Shown: positions 4,461 to 51,339 of the stretch, in pieces
Layout of the letters: each line of letters opens with the position of its first letter
Position numbering within the stretch: position 1 is the stretch's first letter
Origin: a virus
Lineage: Duplodnaviria > Caudoviricetes
Virus record (IMG/VR): IMGVR_UViG_3300023213_000432
Location: 96,001-160,000 of that record
DNA: 64,000 bases
Strand: one strand, 5' to 3'
Program-made: the position numbers and the translations under genes
Notes under the pieces: model-generated
Seen by the model: only the letters and a program-made list of their open reading frames with translations
Database searches by the model: none
What the model was told of the DNA's origin: nothing

Positions 4461-5477
4461 CAAGTCTGCATTTAATCTAAATCCACATTGCTTGCAGCAA
4501 AAGTTAGCTTGACTCTTTCGATTAGAGCGACAAATATATCCACATTTGCTACACCTCTGAGAAGTATAGCGAGCATCAATATAAACTATGTTAATACCCT
4601 TAGCGGCACCCTTATAGATCAAGAACTGTTCTAATTGAAAGAAAGACCAATTGTTGAGCAAAGTGCGTTGTTCTTTTCTTAATCGCTTGTTGCGAATCCC
4701 TGTTAGATCCTCTAATACGATAGTGTCTCCTGGATTTAGTTTATCGATAATCTCCTTGCTAATTTGATGGTTAACATCTGCTCGAAACCGTCTCTCCTTT
4801 CGAGATAATTCTCGAAGGTGTCTTTTGGCAGATTTGCTTCCTGTTCGTTGAAGTCTTTTGCGAAGTCTCTGATAGCGGCGCACAACTCGCTTTACCTCTC
4901 CTCCTCCAAAGAATTGATTGTTGGAGGAAACTGCTAGGTTATTAATCCCTCTGTCGATGCCCACAAAAGTTCCAGCAGGTTGAACGTCTTCAATATCCTT
5001 TTCAAAAACGATATGCAGGAAAACTTTCTTTTTGATGATGCAGAGATCTGCGGAAGTATGCTTCCAAGTTTTAAAATATTCTTTGTAAAAGTTTGGAATT
5101 GTAAGCTGATAGCGTTTTCGTCCATTGATGGTCAGCAGAGAAAGTTGTTGAACATCTAAGAATAGCGTATAAGAATTCTTATCTAAACGAATGCTACACA
5201 GATGGGAATGAGGACAAGAATAATAGCGCTTAGGTTTGGAAAAGACTCCTTTGAGAGCCTCGGTAGCTTTCATCCTAGCGGAGATAGCAAGTTGAGAGGG
5301 AAGATAATCACGTGTCGTATAATAGCAAAGATCGTGAAGTTTGACGCCGTTCTTTTCTTTCTTCTCGAAACCTGTTTGAGCCACGAAGTTAAACGCTTTG
5401 GTATAAGCCTCTAAGGTAGGTAAAATCTCAGGAATTGAGATATTAAGTTTGATCTTAGCGGTTCTTACCAACTTCAT
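4350..5477 (-). CDS. tnpB: TnpB RNA-guided endonuclease
   Basis: RuvC-I GIDRG, RuvC-II VLEDL, YTSQRCSKCG...CKQC zinc finger, RuvC-III NADLNGSRNI; catalytic D/E/D intact. Confidence 0.95.
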   Translation of the reverse strand: MKLVRTAKIKLNISIPEILPTLEAYTKAFNFVAQTGFEKKEKNGVKLHDLCYYTTRDYLPSQLAISARMKATEALKGVFSKPKRYYSCPHSHLCSIRLDKNSYTLFLDVQQLSLLTINGRKRYQLTIPNFYKEYFKTWKHTSADLCIIKKKVFLHIVFEKDIEDVQPAGTFVGIDRGINNLAVSSNNQFFGGGEVKRVVRRYQRLRKRLQRTGSKSAKRHLRELSRKERRFRADVNHQISKEIIDKLNPGDTIVLEDLTGIRNKRLRKEQRTLLNNWSFFQLEQFLIYKGAAKGINIVYIDARYTSQRCSKCGYICRSNRKSQANFCCKQCGFRLNADLNGSRNIVLKHLDSQGLSDRAVVNQPIVGAEMLLTSY

Positions 5478-11902: not shown

Positions 11903-11938
11903 GATCATACTATATATCATATCGTCTGGAGATTGTTG

Positions 11939-14104
11939 ATGAAAATTGAGTTTGCTGCTCCCAATGTTGAAGCGTCTGATGCATTCGTAGAGCGTATGTT
12001 CTCTATCGGAGATTACGGTGTAGTGTTTGATATTTTGCGCTCTAAACTTTATTCTAACCCAATAGCGTCTATTTGTAGAGAATATGCATCTAATGCGAGA
12101 GACGCAATGCGAGAGTGTGGAAAACCCACTGAACCGATCCAAATCCAACTTCCCAATAGTCTTGATCCAACTTTTAAAGTTAAAGATACGGGCGTTGGTA
12201 TATCTCCTGATCGAATTGAGAACGTTTTTATTAAATATGGATCTAGCACCAAACGAGATACTAATGAACTTTGTGGAGCATTTGGCTTAGGCGCTAAGGT
12301 CGCGTACTCTTACTCATCGGATTTCACCGTCATCACCAACTACAACGGCATCCAATACCATTACTCCTGTATCATCGACGAGACTCGCATCGGTAAGCTC
12401 ATCACCCTCTCCCAAAAACTCACCAAAGAATCCAATGGCACCACTATTTCTGTTCCCGTTCGTGAATCTGATTTCCGAGCCTTTTCCGACTATGTAGAAC
12501 GTGCTTGCCGTCATTGGAATCCGCGCCCCATAATAACCGGCAATTCCAAATTTACATGGATAGACGTCAAAAAAGTCATTGACGGCGCCAACTGGATGAT
12601 GAGTTCCTCTTCTGATTATAATAGCGATCGTGTCAAGTTAATCATCGATGGAATTGAATATCCACTGGATATTAGTGCTCTTAAAGATTATGCGGACAAT
12701 ACCCTAATCAATTCTGCACGCGGAACTATCTATCTTTACTTTGACAATGGATTGCTCAGTCTTTCAGCCAATAGGGAAAATGTTTTTCTTGATAAATCCA
12801 CTCAAAAGAAAATCGCTAAACGTCTCCAAGATGTTAAGTCGGAACTTACCAAAAACATTCAAGTCAAGATCGATAATTTCACCAATCTTTGGGAAGCTTT
12901 ATTATATCGCAACAAAGCCTTATCTGAATCTTTTTATCATCATGACTTTTTAGGTAAATTGACTTGGAAAGGGATGGAACTTAAAGTTGGTAATCTTAAA
13001 GTTGATTGTCCAGTTTATCTTTTCACCAAGGGAAAGTCACAACGATATGGTGCTGATCCGGAAAAGATCACCCGGAGTATGACTCGATTTCTATTGTTGG
13101 AAGAGAAAACTGACATCTATATTAATGATCTCTCTATCAAGGAGCCCTCCACCAAACACATCAAGAAAGCCTTTGAAGACAACAAAGATTTGAAAAATCT
13201 GATGGTTATTTGCCCCACAGATGATGTCAAAGTAGAAGATCTTAACCAATCTATTGGTTTGGATAAGATGAATCCCCAGCTTCTTTCCACTGTTACTCAA
13301 GCTAGTGGAAGGAAATATACTGCCCCATCTTCTCGTTTGTTAGTGTTTAAGAACGATGGTAATCATTTTTATCAAGTAGCCATTAATGACATTGAAACAG
13401 ATGTTAAACCAACTAAAGTGTTGTGTTTGCTTCATAAACAAAATGATCAGTGGTCTTATCAAAAAGAACGGTGGGCGGTCATTAAGGAAGGTAAGCAAAA
13501 TATTTATAATGATATTATGAATAAATTAATCCATTACTTTCGAGATGAGACTTCTTTTTATGGGGTGGATGAGAATGCTCCTAAGGATCGAATTAAAGAA
13601 GAGTTCGGAGGATTCATTTCCTTGGAAGATTTTATTCAAGAACGAGTGATTGATGATAAGAGCATTAATTACCCGGAAATAAAATTTATCAAAAATCATT
13701 GTGGAAACGTGGATGCCGATATGTTAAAGGATTGGGAAGAGTTTAAGTTGATGATTGAGGATCCTAATAGCCTTTTCTTTAAAAGATTGGAATTGCATGC
13801 TAAATTCCAAAAGACATGTAATATGGATGCTTTATTGTTATATCTTTATGAAGCTTTTAATGGGGATATGATGGTAAGTAAAATTAAAAGGTTTGCGGCT
13901 GATCATCCAGAGCTTGACATTATGGCTATGGAGATACAATATGGCAAACAATATCCGTTGCTGAAACATTTGGAAAAATGGGTCGTTGATGGTGATGGTA
14001 AGAGAAAAGGCATAGCACATTATATTAATTTAGTCGATGGTTCTTTAGAACAAGAAAAACAAAAGAAAGAAAAGAAAGAAAAGAAAGAAAAGGAAGACAC
14101 ATGA
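11939..14104 (+). CDS. rIIA: rIIA-like protein (GHKL/Hsp90-like ATPase N-terminus)
   Basis: LYSNPIASICREYASNARDA, VKDTGVGISP, YGSSTKR...GAFGLGAK; directly precedes rIIB. Confidence 0.85.
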   Translation: MKIEFAAPNVEASDAFVERMFSIGDYGVVFDILRSKLYSNPIASICREYASNARDAMRECGKPTEPIQIQLPNSLDPTFKVKDTGVGISPDRIENVFIKYGSSTKRDTNELCGAFGLGAKVAYSYSSDFTVITNYNGIQYHYSCIIDETRIGKLITLSQKLTKESNGTTISVPVRESDFRAFSDYVERACRHWNPRPIITGNSKFTWIDVKKVIDGANWMMSSSSDYNSDRVKLIIDGIEYPLDISALKDYADNTLINSARGTIYLYFDNGLLSLSANRENVFLDKSTQKKIAKRLQDVKSELTKNIQVKIDNFTNLWEALLYRNKALSESFYHHDFLGKLTWKGMELKVGNLKVDCPVYLFTKGKSQRYGADPEKITRSMTRFLLLEEKTDIYINDLSIKEPSTKHIKKAFEDNKDLKNLMVICPTDDVKVEDLNQSIGLDKMNPQLLSTVTQASGRKYTAPSSRLLVFKNDGNHFYQVAINDIETDVKPTKVLCLLHKQNDQWSYQKERWAVIKEGKQNIYNDIMNKLIHYFRDETSFYGVDENAPKDRIKEEFGGFISLEDFIQERVIDDKSINYPEIKFIKNHCGNVDADMLKDWEEFKLMIEDPNSLFFKRLELHAKFQKTCNMDALLLYLYEAFNGDMMVSKIKRFAADHPELDIMAMEIQYGKQYPLLKHLEKWVVDGDGKRKGIAHYINLVDGSLEQEKQKKEKKEKKEKEDT

Positions 14105-14850
14105 ATGTTAAATATTTGATTACTGATAACAGTATTACTGTTCATTTTGATGGACAAACTCACATCGTAGCGCGAGGTGATGCTTTGTCGGAGCGTCTAA
14201 TTGAGGTGCTCCGAAGTGGAAAACATGAAGAAGTTCCTAATTTGGTATCTGCTTCCATGAGAATTACAAACTTTTCCAAAGGAAATTTTACCGTGGAAAA
14301 TGGAGACATCCTAGTTAATGGAATTAAAGCTCCGGATGCTTTGGGTAAAAAGATTGTCAAGTTTGCCAATGAAGGATTACCATATCAACCATTGGTGAAG
14401 TTCGCAGAGCATTTGCAACAAAATCCATCGAGACGATCGGTGGAAGAGTTGTTTATGTTTTTGGAGAAGAATGACCATCCTATTACTCCAGATGGATTAT
14501 TTATTGGATATAAGCGCATTCGTGCTGATTTCAAGGACATTTACTCTGGCACCTTTAACAATACACCGGGTGCGTTGGTGGAAATGGCTCGTCAGGAAGT
14601 GGATGAAGATGCGAATCAGACATGTTCTCGAGGGCTCCATGCCAGTAATTGGGAGTATTGCACCAAGCATTATGCTAGCAAAGATGCCGAGAGTGATGTT
14701 ATTGTAGCTTTGGAAATTGACCCTGCGGATGTTGTGTCGGTACCCGTGGATTATAATAATGCTAAAATGCGTGTTTCTAAGTATCGCGTTATAGAAGTTG
14801 TTAAAGAGCCATATCAAGAGGGCATAGTTATTCGAAAGGTTGGTCAATAA
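14101..14850 (+). CDS. rIIB: rIIB-like protein; stop codon supplied by the IsrB element end
   Basis: ELFMFL...ITPDG.FIGYK.I..DFKD...N.PG..VEM.R..VD....TCSRGLH; TAA lies in GTCAATAA of the element. Confidence 0.88.
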   Translation: MNVKYLITDNSITVHFDGQTHIVARGDALSERLIEVLRSGKHEEVPNLVSASMRITNFSKGNFTVENGDILVNGIKAPDALGKKIVKFANEGLPYQPLVKFAEHLQQNPSRRSVEELFMFLEKNDHPITPDGLFIGYKRIRADFKDIYSGTFNNTPGALVEMARQEVDEDANQTCSRGLHASNWEYCTKHYASKDAESDVIVALEIDPADVVSVPVDYNNAKMRVSKYRVIEVVKEPYQEGIVIRKVGQ

Positions 14851-15145
14851 CCCATGACTAAACTCATGGGCTTGTGCGAAGGGAATCAGTCACTCTCTTT
14901 TGATCAAGTTAAAATATTGTACTAGACACAGATCAGAATAGGAGACGCAAGTCAAATAAAAGAAGATCAAATAGGCAGATCAGGATCGCTAATGACGAGA
15001 CTGGAAAAGATACGCTACTGGATGTTTCGCTAGTCTGTAGCCGCATTTCGTAAGAAATGCCAATATCTCATCGATAATTTTATGAGGTATTCGCTGTGTT
15101 TTGCTTATGTCGAAGCGAGTTGAACAAGGCACGTAAGTGCATTTT
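14843..15145 (+). ncRNA. omegaRNA scaffold upstream of isrB
   Basis: Structured non-coding region conserved across three copies; position 5' of the ORF is typical of IscB/IsrB loci. Confidence 0.8.
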
Positions 15146-16477: not shown

Positions 16478-16864
16478 ATGAAGAATAAAATCAAAGATAA
16501 AATCAAACAATTGACGATCGATGAAAGTAAATGGACGGAAGGAACTTTATATAGTGATGGTTCTTATTGTGCGCTCGGGGCTCTCTGTAAATCTTTAGGT
16601 TATTCCGATCGAAAAATGAAGGGGTGCGCGTTTCCGCGCGATTTAGGAGATTACCCGGAGTGGATGGACAAGATAATCGAGAATGAAGAGTACGAAGATA
16701 TTTTGGGTGATTATCTACCTGATGTAGACGACAATTCTTTTCAGGAAATCGTTCCGGCAATTAATGACGATATGGACTTAGACGTTGAAGAAAAGAAATC
16801 TCTTCTTAGAAATGTTTTCAAGTGGGTTGGAATCGACCTTCACTTCAAAAAATCTAAGAAGTAA
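16478..16864 (+). CDS. hypothetical protein (YCALG motif)
   Basis: Start moved to ATG 16478. Confidence 0.6.
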   Translation: MKNKIKDKIKQLTIDESKWTEGTLYSDGSYCALGALCKSLGYSDRKMKGCAFPRDLGDYPEWMDKIIENEEYEDILGDYLPDVDDNSFQEIVPAINDDMDLDVEEKKSLLRNVFKWVGIDLHFKKSKK

Positions 16865-16889: not shown

Positions 16890-17930
16890 ATGTCCGAAAG
16901 GTTAGAAGAAATTAATCCCAAGTTTCGACAACTTACCGATCTCCTTCTCTTTACAGATCGGGTTGATCTTGATCTCTCTAACTTCAAACATCTTTTTCGT
17001 GAAAATCATTCTAAGAATTTAATATACTTCTTAGAACGTTTAGAAAGATCTTTGGAGATTGCATGGGAAAATGGAGAGCAATTTTGGCAGCATCGTTTGT
17101 CTTTCTTGCTTTCTTTGCGAGAGAAGGGATTAATTTCCTGTCTTGATAAGCGTTTAGAAAAACGCTTTGTTACTTTGATGAAACAAAAATCTCAAATTAA
17201 CATCCAATATGATCTTCCTTATTTACAATACTGGACATATTGCAATGTGAAACGACAACGAGGAGAAAATCTTTTCACTGCCAAACAACAACTTATCAGG
17301 TTGCTGGATTATGTTAGTGTGGATAAGATGATCCCCATAATCCTTTCCTTTATTCCCTCAGTCTTTCGCAGTATTAATGAATTTGCGGAAATGATCACTC
17401 ACAAAATTACGCAATCCACTCGTTATTTTGATACCTTGTTGGCTTTAGAAAAACGAGGAATTGAATTTGATTGGATGCCATTATTGGAATTAACCAATGA
17501 AATTATCTTGGTGCGTCCTTATAATGAGAGGAATTGTCGCGCCTTTTTTGTTTTGTTGAACGATTCCTGTATCTTGTCGGAGATCAAAAAACACTATACT
17601 CCTTTACACCGAGAAGGCATTCTAGAAATTTTGGAAGAGTGTGATTATCGACGAATTGAAGAAAACCACCTTCGAAATATCAAAAACTTGATTGAATTGG
17701 ATGAAACTTTGGCGGATGAAATCGTGGAACGATATGCCGATAAATTATATCTTCATCCGATTCATCATAAGAAAGGCAACATCAATAAACTCATTAGAAT
17801 ATTGAAGAAGTTTCCTCAAGCTTCTTCTAAAAGATTATTGTTATATCTTTCTGTTAATGGATTAATGAAAGATATTGAAGAATTGGTTAAGCACCATAAA
17901 GAGCTGGAAGGATTAGTAGCTTTTGTTTGA
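16890..17930 (+). CDS. hypothetical helical protein
   Basis: 346-aa ORF from ATG 16890. Confidence 0.7.
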   Translation: MSERLEEINPKFRQLTDLLLFTDRVDLDLSNFKHLFRENHSKNLIYFLERLERSLEIAWENGEQFWQHRLSFLLSLREKGLISCLDKRLEKRFVTLMKQKSQINIQYDLPYLQYWTYCNVKRQRGENLFTAKQQLIRLLDYVSVDKMIPIILSFIPSVFRSINEFAEMITHKITQSTRYFDTLLALEKRGIEFDWMPLLELTNEIILVRPYNERNCRAFFVLLNDSCILSEIKKHYTPLHREGILEILEECDYRRIEENHLRNIKNLIELDETLADEIVERYADKLYLHPIHHKKGNINKLIRILKKFPQASSKRLLLYLSVNGLMKDIEELVKHHKELEGLVAFV

Positions 17931-17934
17931 GGGC

Positions 17935-17962
17935 TTGACATCGAAATGTAAATGGTTAAAAT
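17935..17962 (+). promoter_or_regulatory. sigma70-like promoter
   Basis: TTGACA(17935)-N16-TAAAAT(17957). Confidence 0.6.
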
Positions 17963-18270
17963 GGGGGTTTAACTCAAATTTTGAAAAATGCATGCAAGGT
18001 GGTGCCTTGCTAGTGGGGCAAGCAGACCCATTAAAACGAGATTAACCCCTCGAAATCTCTGCCGGCTATGAGCACTCAAAAGAGTAAAAGTTCGGCGCCA
18101 AGGGACGTCGATATTATTGATCCGATGCTTTACGAAGGTTACTGCAAAGTGATATAAGTTTAGCAGGAACGATCATATCAAAGCAGACACTATCCAGAAA
18201 CGCAGACATTTGACTTTCGAGTCATTGTCGTCGAAACGGGTTAGATTGCATCCCGATACAACTCTTCAGA
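17963..18270 (+). ncRNA. unclassified structured RNA of about 300 nt
   Basis: ORF-free, GC-richer than flanks, downstream of a promoter; hairpins with UUCG, UACG and GCAA tetraloops on the + strand. Confidence 0.55.
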
Positions 18271-18281
18271 ATTAGGAAATA

Positions 18282-18410
18282 ATGGCACCAACAAAGTTAG
18301 AAGTGGGACAGCGAGTTCGTTGTGTGTTCGCTTATCCGCATAAAGGCAAAACCGGCATTGTCCAGAAAGTAGATGCTATCGGATTAGATATTAAGTGGGA
18401 CGGTCAATAA
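18282..18410 (+). pseudogene. SH3/KOW-like small gene truncated by IsrB element copy 2
   Basis: MAPTKLEVGQRVRCV...LDIKWD-GQ*; excision gives ...IKWD-DENESRCFYAFHRCRQNSNFT* (61 aa). Confidence 0.6.
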
Positions 18411-18700
18411 CCCATGACTAAAATTATGGGCTTGTGCGAAGGATCCTAGTCAGATTCTTTTGATCAAGACTAAAATATTGTACTAGACAAAGAGAGAAGA
18501 AAGGTTATTTAACCAAACGATATTTCAAATAGGCAGATCAGGATCGCTATGACGAGACTGGAAAAGATATGCTACTGGATGTTTCGCTAGTCTGTAGCCG
18601 CATTTCGTAAGAAATGCCGATATTCTATCGATAAATTATAGAATATCCGCTGTGTTTTGCTTATGTCGAAGCGAGTTGAACAAGGCACGTAAGTGCAATT
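18403..18700 (+). ncRNA. omegaRNA scaffold upstream of isrB copy 2
   Basis: Homologous to 14843 and 3327; one internal segment (18490-18530) differs. Confidence 0.8.
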
Positions 18701-19761
18701 TTTTGAGGAAAAGAAACATTGGTTCCCGTCATCGATAACTACAAACAACCATTAATGCCTTGCTCTGAGAAAAGAGCTAGGAAACTTATGGAAAAAGGAA
18801 AGGCTATTTCATATTGGCAGAAAGGTATCTTTTGCATTCGTCTAACCAAAGAACCTTCTAACCGACAAACACAACCCATTGCTCTTGGCATTGATCCTGG
18901 AAGTAAAAGAGAAGGATATACTGTTGCTACTAAGAAAGCAGTAGTTATCAATATCACAACTAATACTCCAGGCTGGATTAAAGATCATGTAGAGACTCGT
19001 AGAAACCTTCGAAGATCTAGAAGATACCGAAAGACTCCTTATCGCTCCTGTCGAGAAAATAGAGCAACTCTTCGAAAAAATCGAGTTCCTCCTTCCACCA
19101 AAGCCAGGTGGAATGCTAAACTGAGAATTATTAAATTCATTCTGAAAATTATTCCTATTACAATCGTTAATGTAGAAGATATTGCCGCTTACACTAAGAA
19201 GGGACAAGCAAAGTGGAATACTTCCTTCTCTCCTTTAGAGGTTGGAAAAACTTGGTTCTATCGTGAGTTAGAAAACTTCGGAGTTCAGCTTCTCAAAACC
19301 AAAGGAACCAAAACTCAAGAAAAACGAGATCAGCGAGATTTTCATAAGCTATCTTCCAAGCTTGATTATTCTTGGAGTGCTCATAACGTGGATAGCCATG
19401 TCCTTGTGGAGATAGCATTGGAATCAGAAATCTCTCCATATTATGGACTATGGAAAATAGAGTTTTTAGAATTTCATCGTAGACAACTTCATGTCCAGAA
19501 TCCAATCAGAGGCAATATCAGAAAACGATATGGAACTACTATTTCTATGAAAATGCCCAGAGGTTCTGTCGTAAAACATAAAGGTAAGTTATATTATCTT
19601 GGTGGAAATAAAAAAGGGAAAGTTTCGCTCCATAGTATCATTACAGGAAAAAGAATTAAACAATCTGTCAAGAAGAGAGATATTGGCGTTTTGTATGCAC
19701 AGAATAGGAGAGTTCAGCTCCTTCCACGATTAAAATCGTGGGTCTCCTTGAGCCTATTTTA
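18403..19761 (+). mobile_element. IS200/IS605-family OMEGA element carrying omegaRNA and isrB (copy 2)
   Basis: Same ends as 14843..16206; followed by ATGAA at 19762. Confidence 0.92.
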
Positions 19762-19762
19762 A
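18719..19762 (+). CDS. isrB: IsrB (copy 2)
   Basis: Same motifs as copy 1 (PLMP, GIDPG, VED, HNVDS), no HNH; similar but not identical to copy 1. Confidence 0.88.
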   Translation: MVPVIDNYKQPLMPCSEKRARKLMEKGKAISYWQKGIFCIRLTKEPSNRQTQPIALGIDPGSKREGYTVATKKAVVINITTNTPGWIKDHVETRRNLRRSRRYRKTPYRSCRENRATLRKNRVPPSTKARWNAKLRIIKFILKIIPITIVNVEDIAAYTKKGQAKWNTSFSPLEVGKTWFYRELENFGVQLLKTKGTKTQEKRDQRDFHKLSSKLDYSWSAHNVDSHVLVEIALESEISPYYGLWKIEFLEFHRRQLHVQNPIRGNIRKRYGTTISMKMPRGSVVKHKGKLYYLGGNKKGKVSLHSIITGKRIKQSVKKRDIGVLYAQNRRVQLLPRLKSWVSLSLF

Positions 19763-22326
19763 TGAAAATGAAAGTAGATGCTTTTATGCCTTCCATCGAT
19801 GCCGCCAAAACTCAAACTTTACTTAAAGATAATTCCGAGTCCTCCATAAAACCTGACCTTCAAGATCGAAAACAATATAAAATCGGAGATCGTGTCAAAC
19901 TTCGGATCAAAGAAAAGCAAGAAGTTTGGGGCACCGTTATCGAGCATAATTCTGCTCATAGTTTGTGTCTTTTTTTGGATGAGGCAATAGACATTGAACA
20001 GAAGAAAAGCTTCAAAACTATAAATCATGAGCGTCAGGAAACTCTTAAGAAATTGGGCATCTCGAATCCAGAGCGCCCTAACTGTTTTTTGTGGGGAGAT
20101 TTTTCCCCTAACTACATTATTGGAACTGACAAAGTTATTGTTTTGGATCGCCTTCTTGACGAAGAAACCATTAATCCGGCAGGTAAATCGATGGACGTTT
20201 TACCAGATTCCATCTTTTTTGATTGTCATAGTAACAGGTTCAGTGGATGCAGGCATGACTCGCAACACGAGCCATCCACTCGAAAAGTATATGCGGCTCT
20301 GAAAATAGATAAAGGAAATCCAGATTTAGTCTATGTTTGCGATCAGCATTTTCAAAATCGAGTTAGCTATAATTGGGAAAATCGTTCTTTAGGTTTTGAA
20401 GGTTTGGTACCATTAGATGTTGGTCCCGCTCCGTCCTATAAATTTGGAGATCGGCTTCAAATTAAGATTAATAACGAGATTGTTTGGGCCACCGTAGTAG
20501 ATGAACGAGGTTCCGGCGCCCATGAACCTCGTCTATCTTATCCGTTATTGCATTTAGATAAACCCAATCCCGCCTCTCATGATTTTATTCCGGAAGATCG
20601 TGTTAAACCTATTTCAGATATGGGTATAAATGTCAATGAGAAAAAGTTTTGGTGGCTTCTCCCTGATAACAAAGTTTTGTATCGTCTTCCTAAAGAACGT
20701 CCATGCACTCCATCTAATCAGCCCACAAAAGAAGGTAAGGGCGATATTGATGGTGCCCAAGTCAAACCACCCGAAGTAAAACAGTTTAAAGAAGGAAGCC
20801 TCGTTAAATATATTGCTGAGAGCGCACAAGTTGGAAGTAATCCAGCCCTGGTTATAGGACAATTATATAAGATTAGGAAAATAGGAAAGAGTATCGATGG
20901 CAGCGATCAAATTTTCTTGAAGGGATTTGATGAAGAAGATATTTGGTGGCGGAAAGAAAGATTTGAATTAATAACTGTTAAGAAAGATGTTCCTGTTGCT
21001 TTAGAGACGCCCACTAAACAAGAAGACAAATGTCAAATTGGAGATCATGTCTCATTGCTCATTGATGGAGTGTATAATACTGGTGGCACGGTAGTGGGTT
21101 TTCAGGATCAAGTTCCATTAATTTGGTTAGATCTTCCTAAACCAGGAAAGTATGGTGGGACAGTTGATTACTATTCCAATAAAGATGTAATTTGTGCTAA
21201 TATCAAAAAGTTAGGCTATGATACAAGTTTGCATCGTTGTTGGATTGCCCATCATTGGCATACCAGGATTCTCAACATTAAACACCTTTATTGGCTGGAT
21301 GCAAACGGCATGCCCTTGAAGTTTGATGATGCTAACTCAACTTTGAAGAATGCGGTAGCACCTCAGCCGCAAGCGAATGAAGTAGTTGATGTTGATAAAG
21401 CTAAATCATTTTCTATTTCCGGCGATGTTTATGGTCCGTATCCTGTCCCAACTACTAATTGGTGGCCGCTTGGAAATCAGTCCAACATCGAACAAAAGCC
21501 CCTTTTCAGCCCGCAGGATATTGAACGTGCCATTAAAACTTTGGAACAAGCATTTGCTATGGGTTTGGCAAAATCAGATCAAAAAGATGCGTTGAATGTT
21601 TTGGATCAAGTGGCTAAAAGATTGGAGCAAAAGGAAGATATTGTAAATACAATAACCAAAACTTATACTTTTTCTCAAGACAATACTTCTAATTGGATGC
21701 CGTTTGTTATAAATGCCGGTGCCAATTCTAAACCCCTTAACTTCAAGTTTGATGGTAAATCATGGAATATTGTTTCGGATGCCCCCATTAATGTTAGTGG
21801 TGGCAAATTAGATCCAGAAGAAAATTTCAAGGTATTTGTTGAAGAGGAAGAACAACCTAACAGCGACGACGAAGCTAAAAAGCGACCCTTTAGCGCTATG
21901 GTTAAAGAAGATGTCATTGATGCTGGATACCGTGTAGTTGCCAATCAACTTACCAAAGGCATTAAAAATGTTTTTCTCCTTGTTCTCAAAGACAAAGGAG
22001 CAGATGATAAGAAAATTACTCTCGTTCGAGAACTATTGGATAGTGAGATCGGCAATGCTTTTGTTTCTATTATCTTGGGATATTGTCTTACTTATATGCC
22101 CAAAGTTAAGGAAGATAAGCGGGCTCAAAAGTTGGCGGGCGAATTCCGCGTAGAAGGGTTATCAACTGCTGGTAATGCTTTGATGAATGTGGTATGGCAA
22201 TATGTTAAGGATTTGCCAGCATCGGAAAAAATAAGAGTGGAAACGAAAGAAGTTCGAGTTTCAGAAGAGGAGATACAAGAAATTGACGAAGTCGGCGAAG
22301 CAAGCGGCAATTGTGCTAATCATTAA
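19762..22326 (+). CDS. large modular protein with several SH3/KOW-like (xxGDRV) units
   Basis: YKIGDRVKL, YKFGDRLQI, FKEGSLVKY, CQIGDHVSL units; exact start uncertain. Confidence 0.7.
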   Translation: MKMKVDAFMPSIDAAKTQTLLKDNSESSIKPDLQDRKQYKIGDRVKLRIKEKQEVWGTVIEHNSAHSLCLFLDEAIDIEQKKSFKTINHERQETLKKLGISNPERPNCFLWGDFSPNYIIGTDKVIVLDRLLDEETINPAGKSMDVLPDSIFFDCHSNRFSGCRHDSQHEPSTRKVYAALKIDKGNPDLVYVCDQHFQNRVSYNWENRSLGFEGLVPLDVGPAPSYKFGDRLQIKINNEIVWATVVDERGSGAHEPRLSYPLLHLDKPNPASHDFIPEDRVKPISDMGINVNEKKFWWLLPDNKVLYRLPKERPCTPSNQPTKEGKGDIDGAQVKPPEVKQFKEGSLVKYIAESAQVGSNPALVIGQLYKIRKIGKSIDGSDQIFLKGFDEEDIWWRKERFELITVKKDVPVALETPTKQEDKCQIGDHVSLLIDGVYNTGGTVVGFQDQVPLIWLDLPKPGKYGGTVDYYSNKDVICANIKKLGYDTSLHRCWIAHHWHTRILNIKHLYWLDANGMPLKFDDANSTLKNAVAPQPQANEVVDVDKAKSFSISGDVYGPYPVPTTNWWPLGNQSNIEQKPLFSPQDIERAIKTLEQAFAMGLAKSDQKDALNVLDQVAKRLEQKEDIVNTITKTYTFSQDNTSNWMPFVINAGANSKPLNFKFDGKSWNIVSDAPINVSGGKLDPEENFKVFVEEEEQPNSDDEAKKRPFSAMVKEDVIDAGYRVVANQLTKGIKNVFLLVLKDKGADDKKITLVRELLDSEIGNAFVSIILGYCLTYMPKVKEDKRAQKLAGEFRVEGLSTAGNALMNVVWQYVKDLPASEKIRVETKEVRVSEEEIQEIDEVGEASGNCANH

Positions 22327-51061: not shown

Positions 51062-51339
51062 ATTCAATGATATATCACATATTAAAGGCATAAAACAACA
51101 TATTATCAACAACAAGGGAGTTTAGTTCATTTAGAAGAACGCGACAATAGCATTGTCGATGTGCTGGGAGCGTAGCCCAGAACTTCCACTAACTCGCGCT
51201 TATCTCACTTGTTGAGGTAAGTAGATCGAGTAAAAATTATGGCAATTGATTGCTCGGTACGCCGAGACCGCCACTAGTAGAACACAGACTGGTGGCACTG
51301 CCGAACACTTGATATAGTTGTACTATAGAGAGGAAACTA

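Follow-up and report, generated by a model that had tools for sequence, protein, structure and literature searches.

The gap between two genes of a phage genome, preceded by a promoter-like sequence, raises the question of whether it encodes a functional RNA and, if so, whether this RNA acts on the message that follows it or on its own. An earlier note had proposed that a promoter-driven structured RNA of ∼300 nucleotides (nt) without a recognisable family is encoded here, and this is supported by covariation among relatives, by a promoter position that is kept in them, and by the lack of any match in Rfam. The gap lies in what we call the window, which is the whole stretch of DNA analyzed (64,000 nt) and corresponds to bases 96001 to 160000 of a 198,652-bp IMG/VR virus record with a CheckV completeness of 46%. 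The genes rIIA (11933 to 14104) and rIIB (14101 to 14850) are located shortly upstream of the structured RNA, a 327-kb contig encodes the same proteins as the 198,652-bp record, and the contigs carrying relatives are 412 to 462 kb long, which together indicate a huge T4-like phage.

The gap and its neighbouring genes

The interval is free of open reading frames (ORFs), as the earlier note had stated (none longer than 40 amino acids [aa] in any frame between the stop codon at 17930 and the ATG at 18282), and it is indeed enriched in GC (0.44 to 0.45, versus 0.31 to 0.36 in the flanks). The sigma-70-type promoter that had been read from the letters is also present, on the plus strand at 17935 to 17962 (TTGACA-N16-TAAAAT, an 11/12 match), with its first base 5 nt past the stop codon of the upstream gene; transcription would be expected to start at about 17967 to 17971. 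Taken alone, the promoter match is no better than chance, as matches to the promoter consensus number 4 versus 3.9 expected locally and 25 versus 20.9 expected genome-wide. Folding energy alone is likewise weak evidence, with MFE folds compared to shuffled sequences yielding z values of −2.1 to −2.8 for the window and −0.6 for the homologue in contig L002. What does rise above chance is conservation and covariation across relatives. The stretch is single copy: a blastn search against its own genome matched only itself, and no other similar stretch is found in the 198-kb record.

Upstream of the RNA lies a gene for a protein of 346 aa (plus strand, 16890 to 17930, with an ATG at 16890 and the ORF open from a TTG at 16785). 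Its product has 43 homologues, mostly of 346 aa, and could be assigned to no known family, its only Pfam match being below threshold. The Atlas model of this protein is an alpha-solenoid, with ARM/HEAT/PPR-like structure neighbours (TM 0.5 to 0.59). In most relatives, the 346-aa gene is preceded by an adenylosuccinate synthetase gene and followed by Fe-S assembly and RlaP genes.

On the downstream side, the RNA is followed by a small ORF of 42 aa (plus strand, ATG at 18282, end at 18410) with a Shine-Dalgarno (SD) sequence, AGGAAA, from 18274. On the plus strand, neither the window nor L002 has a terminator-like site in the stretch that separates the RNA from the ORF after it. The small ORF carries a repeat similar to the SH3-like repeats of the 854-aa protein described below. 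We also considered whether it is homologous to the ORFs of 63 to 76 aa that follow the 346-aa gene in relatives and rejected this, since the identity is 17 to 21%. After the small ORF come an IsrB-type element and then a gene for a protein of 854 aa (plus strand, 19762 to 22326). This protein contains several SH3-like repeats (YKxGDRxxV..W.TVV) and a C-terminal domain of ∼120 to 150 aa that is common to more than 700 representative proteins of 121 to 3226 aa and belongs to no Pfam or PHROG family. Atlas look-ups of the 346-aa and 854-aa proteins yielded no function for either.

Homologues and a conserved fold

A blastn search of the stretch against the INPHARED phages gave no match, a search of IMG/VR for related loci with both flanking proteins found no relatives, and a word-seeded protein search with the 854-aa protein returned only the protein itself, the relatives of which were recovered only by an exhaustive HMMER search. 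Homologues of the RNA were located through synteny with the upstream 346-aa gene, in three contigs (L002, L015, and L019) from three sequencing runs, two of which belong to one series. All three are members of the closest cluster of 346-aa protein homologues (56% identity), and each has a gap of 420 to 445 nt between the 346-aa gene and a gene for a protein of 865 to 873 aa, which directly follows the RNA and is the orthologue of the 854-aa ORF of the window. The gap aligns with window positions 17987 to 18262; between the RNA and the next gene, these contigs have neither an IsrB element nor a small ORF. Together, they represent one second lineage. Across the core of the RNA (17990 to 18254), its identity to the window is ∼65%, the same level as for the flanking protein genes (64.5 to 66% between the lineages).

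The position of the promoter is kept in all four sequences, in which TTGACA-N16-TA[A/G]A[A/T]T begins 2 to 5 nt past the stop codon of the 346-aa gene; in L002, L015, and L019 it reads TTGACA-N16-TAGATT and begins 2 nt past the stop codon, and the substitutions in L015 and L019 are confined to the spacer, leaving the hexamers unchanged. The other end of the RNA is equally regular in its surroundings, with an SD sequence and an ATG 20 to 30 nt past the last conserved block (CAUCCCG) in four of four sequences. Between promoter and core, the RNAs of the relatives carry ∼105 extra nt that form a separate closed 5′ domain (5079 to 5182 in L002, with counterparts in L015 and L019), closed by CGAAGGA/UCCUUCG; the window RNA is without it. 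Within this extra domain is CUCACCUCCUU, a sequence similar to the 3′ end of 16S rRNA (an anti-SD sequence), and in the MFE fold the anti-SD-like CACCUCCUU is part of the domain-closing helix.

Beyond these contigs, the search for further members was negative. Distant contigs with the 346-aa gene (L003 to L007) or with an 854-like gene (L016 and L017) have no gap and no RNA. Scanning viral contigs with five DNA patterns yielded nothing, or chance matches in coding regions; two patterns gave no match in metagenome contigs, and of two patterns used on genome contigs one gave no match and the other a single chance match, which scored less than 5 bits with the covariance model. This model (R1) scores 280 to 331 bits on the four members, and a search with it of the collected loci (17, then L019) and of the phage's own record found no members beyond the four. 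As known, the family thus has four copies in two lineages. Among the sequencing runs listed as containing the stretch there is no RNA run; a single DNA run, from a subsurface metagenome, shares a minor fraction of its words, which says nothing about expression or habitat. A literature search found nothing on this RNA.

Alignments of three and four sequences (A7 and A8) underlie a consensus fold calculated with RNAalifold, which comprises 13 helices and 76 pairs over a core at 17990 to 18254 on the plus strand. In this fold, 95 to 96% of the cells are standard pairs, and 21 to 22 of the 76 pairs have changed on both sides. As a control that keeps the relatedness of the sequences, the pairing partners were slid by 1 to 3 columns, whereupon only 29 to 45% of the cells were paired and 0 to 3 pairs had changed on both sides; in a shuffle control, 6 to 8 pairs had changed on both sides, and none of 500 shuffles attained the observed value. 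Base pairs are therefore kept through compensatory substitutions beyond the controls, with the qualifications that the sequences used for the test are also those from which the structure was derived and that, since there are four sequences from only two lineages, no single pair is formally statistically significant. The covariation check that the earlier note had proposed, carried out on these four homologues from two lineages, thus supports a conserved plus-strand fold. Conservation is higher in unpaired columns (74%) than in paired ones (60.5%), and the invariant loop and junction blocks include GGU, CCCAU, UAACC, AAGG, GAA, AUAA, GGAAC, CAAA, and UUCG. The strand is indicated by the 6 to 11 G-U pairs per sequence, which would be A-C mismatches on the minus strand. 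By comparison of these sequences, positions 17990 to 18254 encode an evolutionarily conserved structured RNA of ∼265 to 275 nt, on the plus strand.

The predicted architecture starts with a hairpin (helix 1, 17990 to 18014; GCAAGGU-GGU-GCCUUGC plus a GC/GU extension) in which the GGU loop is invariant, 3 pairs have changed on both sides, and pairing is 100%. Helix 2 is a candidate closure of the domain, formed by GGG at 18015 to 18017 and CCC at 18252 to 18254, with CCCAU at 18027 to 18031 as an alternative partner; it is invariant on both sides, so covariation says nothing about it. The same holds for helix 5 (18037 to 18052; CGAG-AUUAACCC-CUCG), the stem of which is invariant and so offers no covariation for or against it. 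This hairpin lies within a 21-nt block, AACGAGAUUAACCCCUCGAAA, that is identical in the window, L002, and L019 and has two loop changes in L015. Helix 6 (18074 to 18085; ACUC-AAAA-GAGU) exists in three stem versions in three sequences (ACUC/GAGU, GUUC/GAAC, and ACC/GGU). Helix 7 (18092 to 18111; UCGGCGCC-AAGG-GACGUCGA) presents an invariant AAGG loop within a CAAGGGA block, with 2 pairs changed on both sides and 96 to 97% pairing.

Two long arms make up the remainder of the fold. The first (helices 8 to 10, 18113 to 18178) is interrupted by a conserved internal loop, in which UUAYGAAR faces AUAAGU, and ends in a hairpin, which is followed by an invariant GGAAC within CAGGAACG; 6 of its pairs have changed on both sides, and the stem of helix 10 is kept while its loop differs (window, GCAA; relatives, UUCG). 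In the second (helices 11 to 13, 18183 to 18249), the UUCG end loop at 18216 to 18219 is invariant, as are a flanking CAAAG and a GAAACGG within the 3′ side. Here, 7 pairs have changed on both sides, and helix 13 of L019 shows additional changes from G-C to G-U and from U-G to U-A.

The helices that had been read from the window alone fared unequally in this comparison. Four of them show compensatory change in the relatives, namely, GCAAGG/CCTTGC (17994 to 18010), ACTC-AAAA-GAGT (18074 to 18085), TTACT-GCAA-AGTGA (18139 to 18153), and TGACT-UUCG-AGTCA inside GAC/GTC (18201 to 18233), whereas about half, together with a pseudoknot, fail it. GAGATT/AATCTC has one pair broken in each relative lineage and competes with the invariant CGAG/CUCG hairpin of helix 5, and the pseudoknot proposed between its loop and GGGGTT at 17964 to 17969 would use nucleotides that lie at or before the expected transcription start and have no counterpart in the relatives. 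GCCGGCT/AGTTCGGC is displaced by the covarying hairpin at 18092 to 18111, and the supposed CTT-UACG-AAG tetraloop hairpin reads UAUG in the relatives and falls into the conserved internal loop of the first arm. CGGG/CCCG is ambiguous, as it is one of several possible pairings among invariant G runs and C runs; several such runs allow alternative pairings, among which four sequences cannot decide.

Comparison with known RNAs and the leader reading

To place the RNA among known families, the window was compared with Rfam 15 (4,227 models, including RNase P, tmRNA, SRP, 6S, riboswitches, group I and II introns, GOLLD, ROOL, and HEARO). At the gathering score, the whole window gave no match, and, as predicted by the earlier note, no family was matched even at an E value of ≤10, be it with the stretch, where a search of 17930 to 18290 gave chance-level hits only (Rubella_3 with 12.8 bits and WT1-AS_7 with 6.2 bits), or with the L002 homologue, which gave none. 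The hallmarks of tmRNA are absent, too: ARAGORN finds no tmRNA, and its only match in the window is a tRNA-Ala at 51116 to 51189. The anticodon of this tRNA is AGC, which is unusual, as Ala tRNAs of bacteria and phages normally have UGC or GGC.

Few large RNAs combine many conserved helices with conserved junction nucleotides, and those that have been characterised are mostly ribozymes, riboswitches, or scaffolds of ribonucleoproteins. Comparative genomics has uncovered large orphan RNAs in bacteria and phages, such as GOLLD, ROOL, raiA, and HEARO, which the RNA described here resembles in length, in its many helices, in the conserved nucleotides of junctions and loops, in its covarying stems, and in being carried by a phage. 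It differs from them in that their models give no match at an E value of ≤10, in being much rarer (four copies in two lineages), and in standing directly before an ORF without a terminator. With riboswitches and other structured leaders (T-box, cobalamin, and ribosomal-protein leaders) it shares its place between a promoter and an SD sequence with ATG, on the same strand and in every member, and junction nucleotides that are more conserved than stems. It matches none of the known classes, however, no conserved terminator/antiterminator or SD-sequestering alternative is visible, and the downstream genes are not known for a metabolic function from which a ligand could be guessed. The four sequences are thus a candidate for a new family without detectable relation to any Rfam family, although, if the RNA is a structured 5′ leader, it would be of an already known kind. 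Such a family would come from poorly explored huge phages and would have a defined promoter, a defined strand, and a 13-helix model; its rarity limits the claim for now.

Our preferred explanation, to which we give not quite an even chance, is that this is a new structured 5′ leader RNA that acts in cis. In all four sequences, it is located between a promoter and a co-oriented start codon without a terminator of its own, and because the promoter is conserved, a terminator is absent, and SD sequence and ATG follow within 20 to 30 nt, the RNA is physically the 5′ leader of the next gene. A host-type (sigma-70-like) promoter directly after the 346-aa gene would transcribe it, and the transcript would fold into ∼13 helices, with a 5′ hairpin domain and two long arms arranged around conserved junctions. 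It would lead the gene of 865 to 873 aa in the relatives and, in the window, the small ORF, followed by the IsrB element and then the 854-aa gene. Once folded, the leader might determine how stable the downstream message is or how it is translated, possibly through a ligand or a protein that it binds.

Several observations speak against a leader. From the RNA to the start codon, the two lineages show no sequence conservation, and no shared alternative pairing that hides the SD sequence or forms a terminator was seen in the four sequences. The RNA of the window precedes a different ORF, and a 1.36-kb insertion separates it from the 854-aa gene. L016 and L017 have an orthologue of the 854-aa gene, and L003 to L007 have one of the 346-aa gene, all without the RNA, which is therefore an accessory and not a fixed regulator of either gene. 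The lack of a conserved expression platform, the difference in the downstream ORF, and the dispensability of the RNA for the orthologues of both neighbours make a trans-acting RNA a serious rival, albeit one that we regard as rather doubtful. According to this alternative, a stable, stand-alone RNA with its own promoter would be processed from the 5′ end of the transcript, perhaps to work as a scaffold, a decoy, or a ribozyme that the phage employs on, or against, its host, and it would stand before an ORF only by coincidence. In size and complexity, with 13 helices and conserved junctions and loops, it is closer to the large orphan RNAs than to typical leaders, its 3′ flank is not conserved, an insertion before the 854-aa gene is tolerated, and the RNA is absent beside orthologous genes of related phages; in addition, the extra 5′ domain of the relatives suggests a modular RNA. 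However, the RNA is followed by neither a terminator nor any other defined 3′ end, every one of the four members has an ORF with an SD sequence that begins 20 to 30 nt past it, and nothing points to processing or to a partner protein.

A more far-reaching reading can also be entertained, which we consider rather doubtful. The four sequences might be the first known representatives of a novel class of large phage RNAs with a complex fold and a specific biochemical activity, be it as a riboswitch for an unrecognised signal, as a ribozyme, or as a protein-binding scaffold or decoy. Huge phages might then use such an RNA early in infection, either to interfere with the host or to time the production of a large protein that is associated with the virion or directed at the host.

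Remaining alternatives and the neighbouring IsrB element

Apart from the leader and a trans-acting RNA, the locus might have no RNA function at all, being a DNA-level site (for protein binding, as an origin, or as a packaging signal) or conserved merely through recent common descent, with a coincidental fold. We judge this improbable. The energy z-scores, from −0.6 to −2.8, are modest, there are only two lineages, and related sequences alone can exceed a shuffle control, but at 65% identity 21 to 22 pairs have changed on both sides while the fold as a whole retains 95 to 96% pairing, which is not seen when the partners are slid. Moreover, tetraloops have been swapped and kept, and the G-U asymmetry indicates one transcribed strand.

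A relic or cargo of a mobile element would be a further explanation, either as a degenerate group I intron, as the guide scaffold of an OMEGA-type system (IscB/IsrB/TnpB), or as a nonautonomous mini element. It is slightly more improbable still, and largely refuted already. In its favour, no fewer than 17 elements of the genome share one left end, the distance to the IsrB element downstream is 150 nt, and the RNA is patchily distributed at a junction of gene modules. Against this stand its single copy in the 198-kb record and its occurrence in L002, L015, and L019, where the syntenic site is the same and IsrB is missing from it. An intron was rejected because the flanking ORFs are complete, leaving no exons to join; the 346-aa protein ends where its 43 homologues end, and the downstream ORFs have their own SD sequence and ATG. 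The RNA does resemble the group I introns of T4-like phages in size, phage setting, and helices capped by UUCG or GNRA loops, but its flanking genes are separate and complete, it has its own promoter between them, and no intron model matches at an E value of ≤10. The HEARO/omega RNA of IscB and IsrB (RF02033) is likewise structured, similar in length, and located just upstream of a protein gene; in contrast to it, the RNA studied here is single copy, lies outside the element, and is present in relatives without IsrB at the site, and the HEARO model has no match in 17930 to 18290 even at an E value of ≤10. It is not one of the mini insertion elements of this genome either, since their end motif (GTCAATWACC) is absent from 17935 to 18281 and blastn matches the stretch only to itself. 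Finally, a hidden small protein-coding gene is very improbable, for there are short ORFs (40 aa at 17923 to 18045 in the window and 78 aa at 5051 to 5287 in L002), but the shared block TGCATGCA is read in different frames in the two and the peptides are unrelated, every frame contains stops, and the substitutions compensate for one another instead of being synonymous.

The element next to the RNA is the second of two copies in the window, both of which encode RRXRR proteins of 347 to 348 aa without HNH (IsrB type) and each of which has a weak HEARO/omega-RNA match (14843 to 15125 and 18403 to 18681). Copy 2 (plus strand, 18403 to 19761) consists of an omega-RNA-like scaffold at 18403 to 18681, where the HEARO match is weak (24.8 bits), and of isrB at 18719 to 19762, the product of which has the RRXRR domain (PF14239) and no HNH domain; copy 2 is 84% identical to copy 1. 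The ends of the elements were set by comparing the two copies, and the left end at 18403 is fixed by a left-end motif, GTCAATWACC..ATGACTAAA, that occurs 17 times in 198 kb, 16 times on the plus strand, with differing, unrelated upstream flanks. Its positions in the window are 3327, 14843, 18403, 24029, 26088, 31328, 57912, and 58043, the others being outside. The element therefore begins ∼150 nt past the conserved core, and the structured RNA is not part of it. The load of IS200/IS605-type (OMEGA) elements is unusually heavy for a phage.

The insertion of copy 2 cuts the small ORF, the last two codons and stop of which (ORF at 18282 to 18410) are supplied by the left end of the element. If copy 2 spans 18403 to 19761 (1,359 nt), its excision would leave the small ORF open in the same frame for another ∼22 codons, which would overlap with the beginning of the 854-aa gene. 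ATGAA follows both IsrB copies, where it completes the isrB stops (TCA-TGA in copy 1 and TAA in copy 2), and after copy 2 it also supplies the ATG of the 854-aa gene. This sequence resembles the NTGA target-adjacent motif that has reportedly been observed for an IsrB.

No promoter scoring more than 9/12 was found between the leader and the IsrB guide, which points to the leader promoter as the likely source of the transcript that would contain guide and omega RNA, and the IsrB element is probably transcribed together with the leader. If the leader promoter does feed the IsrB guide and omega RNA, the locus would provide a concrete example of how a guide derived from the flank of an element is transcribed. 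The left end of copy 1 (14843) overlaps the last codons of rIIB, the ORF of which ends at 14850; the rIIB match nonetheless reaches the end of the PHROG profile.
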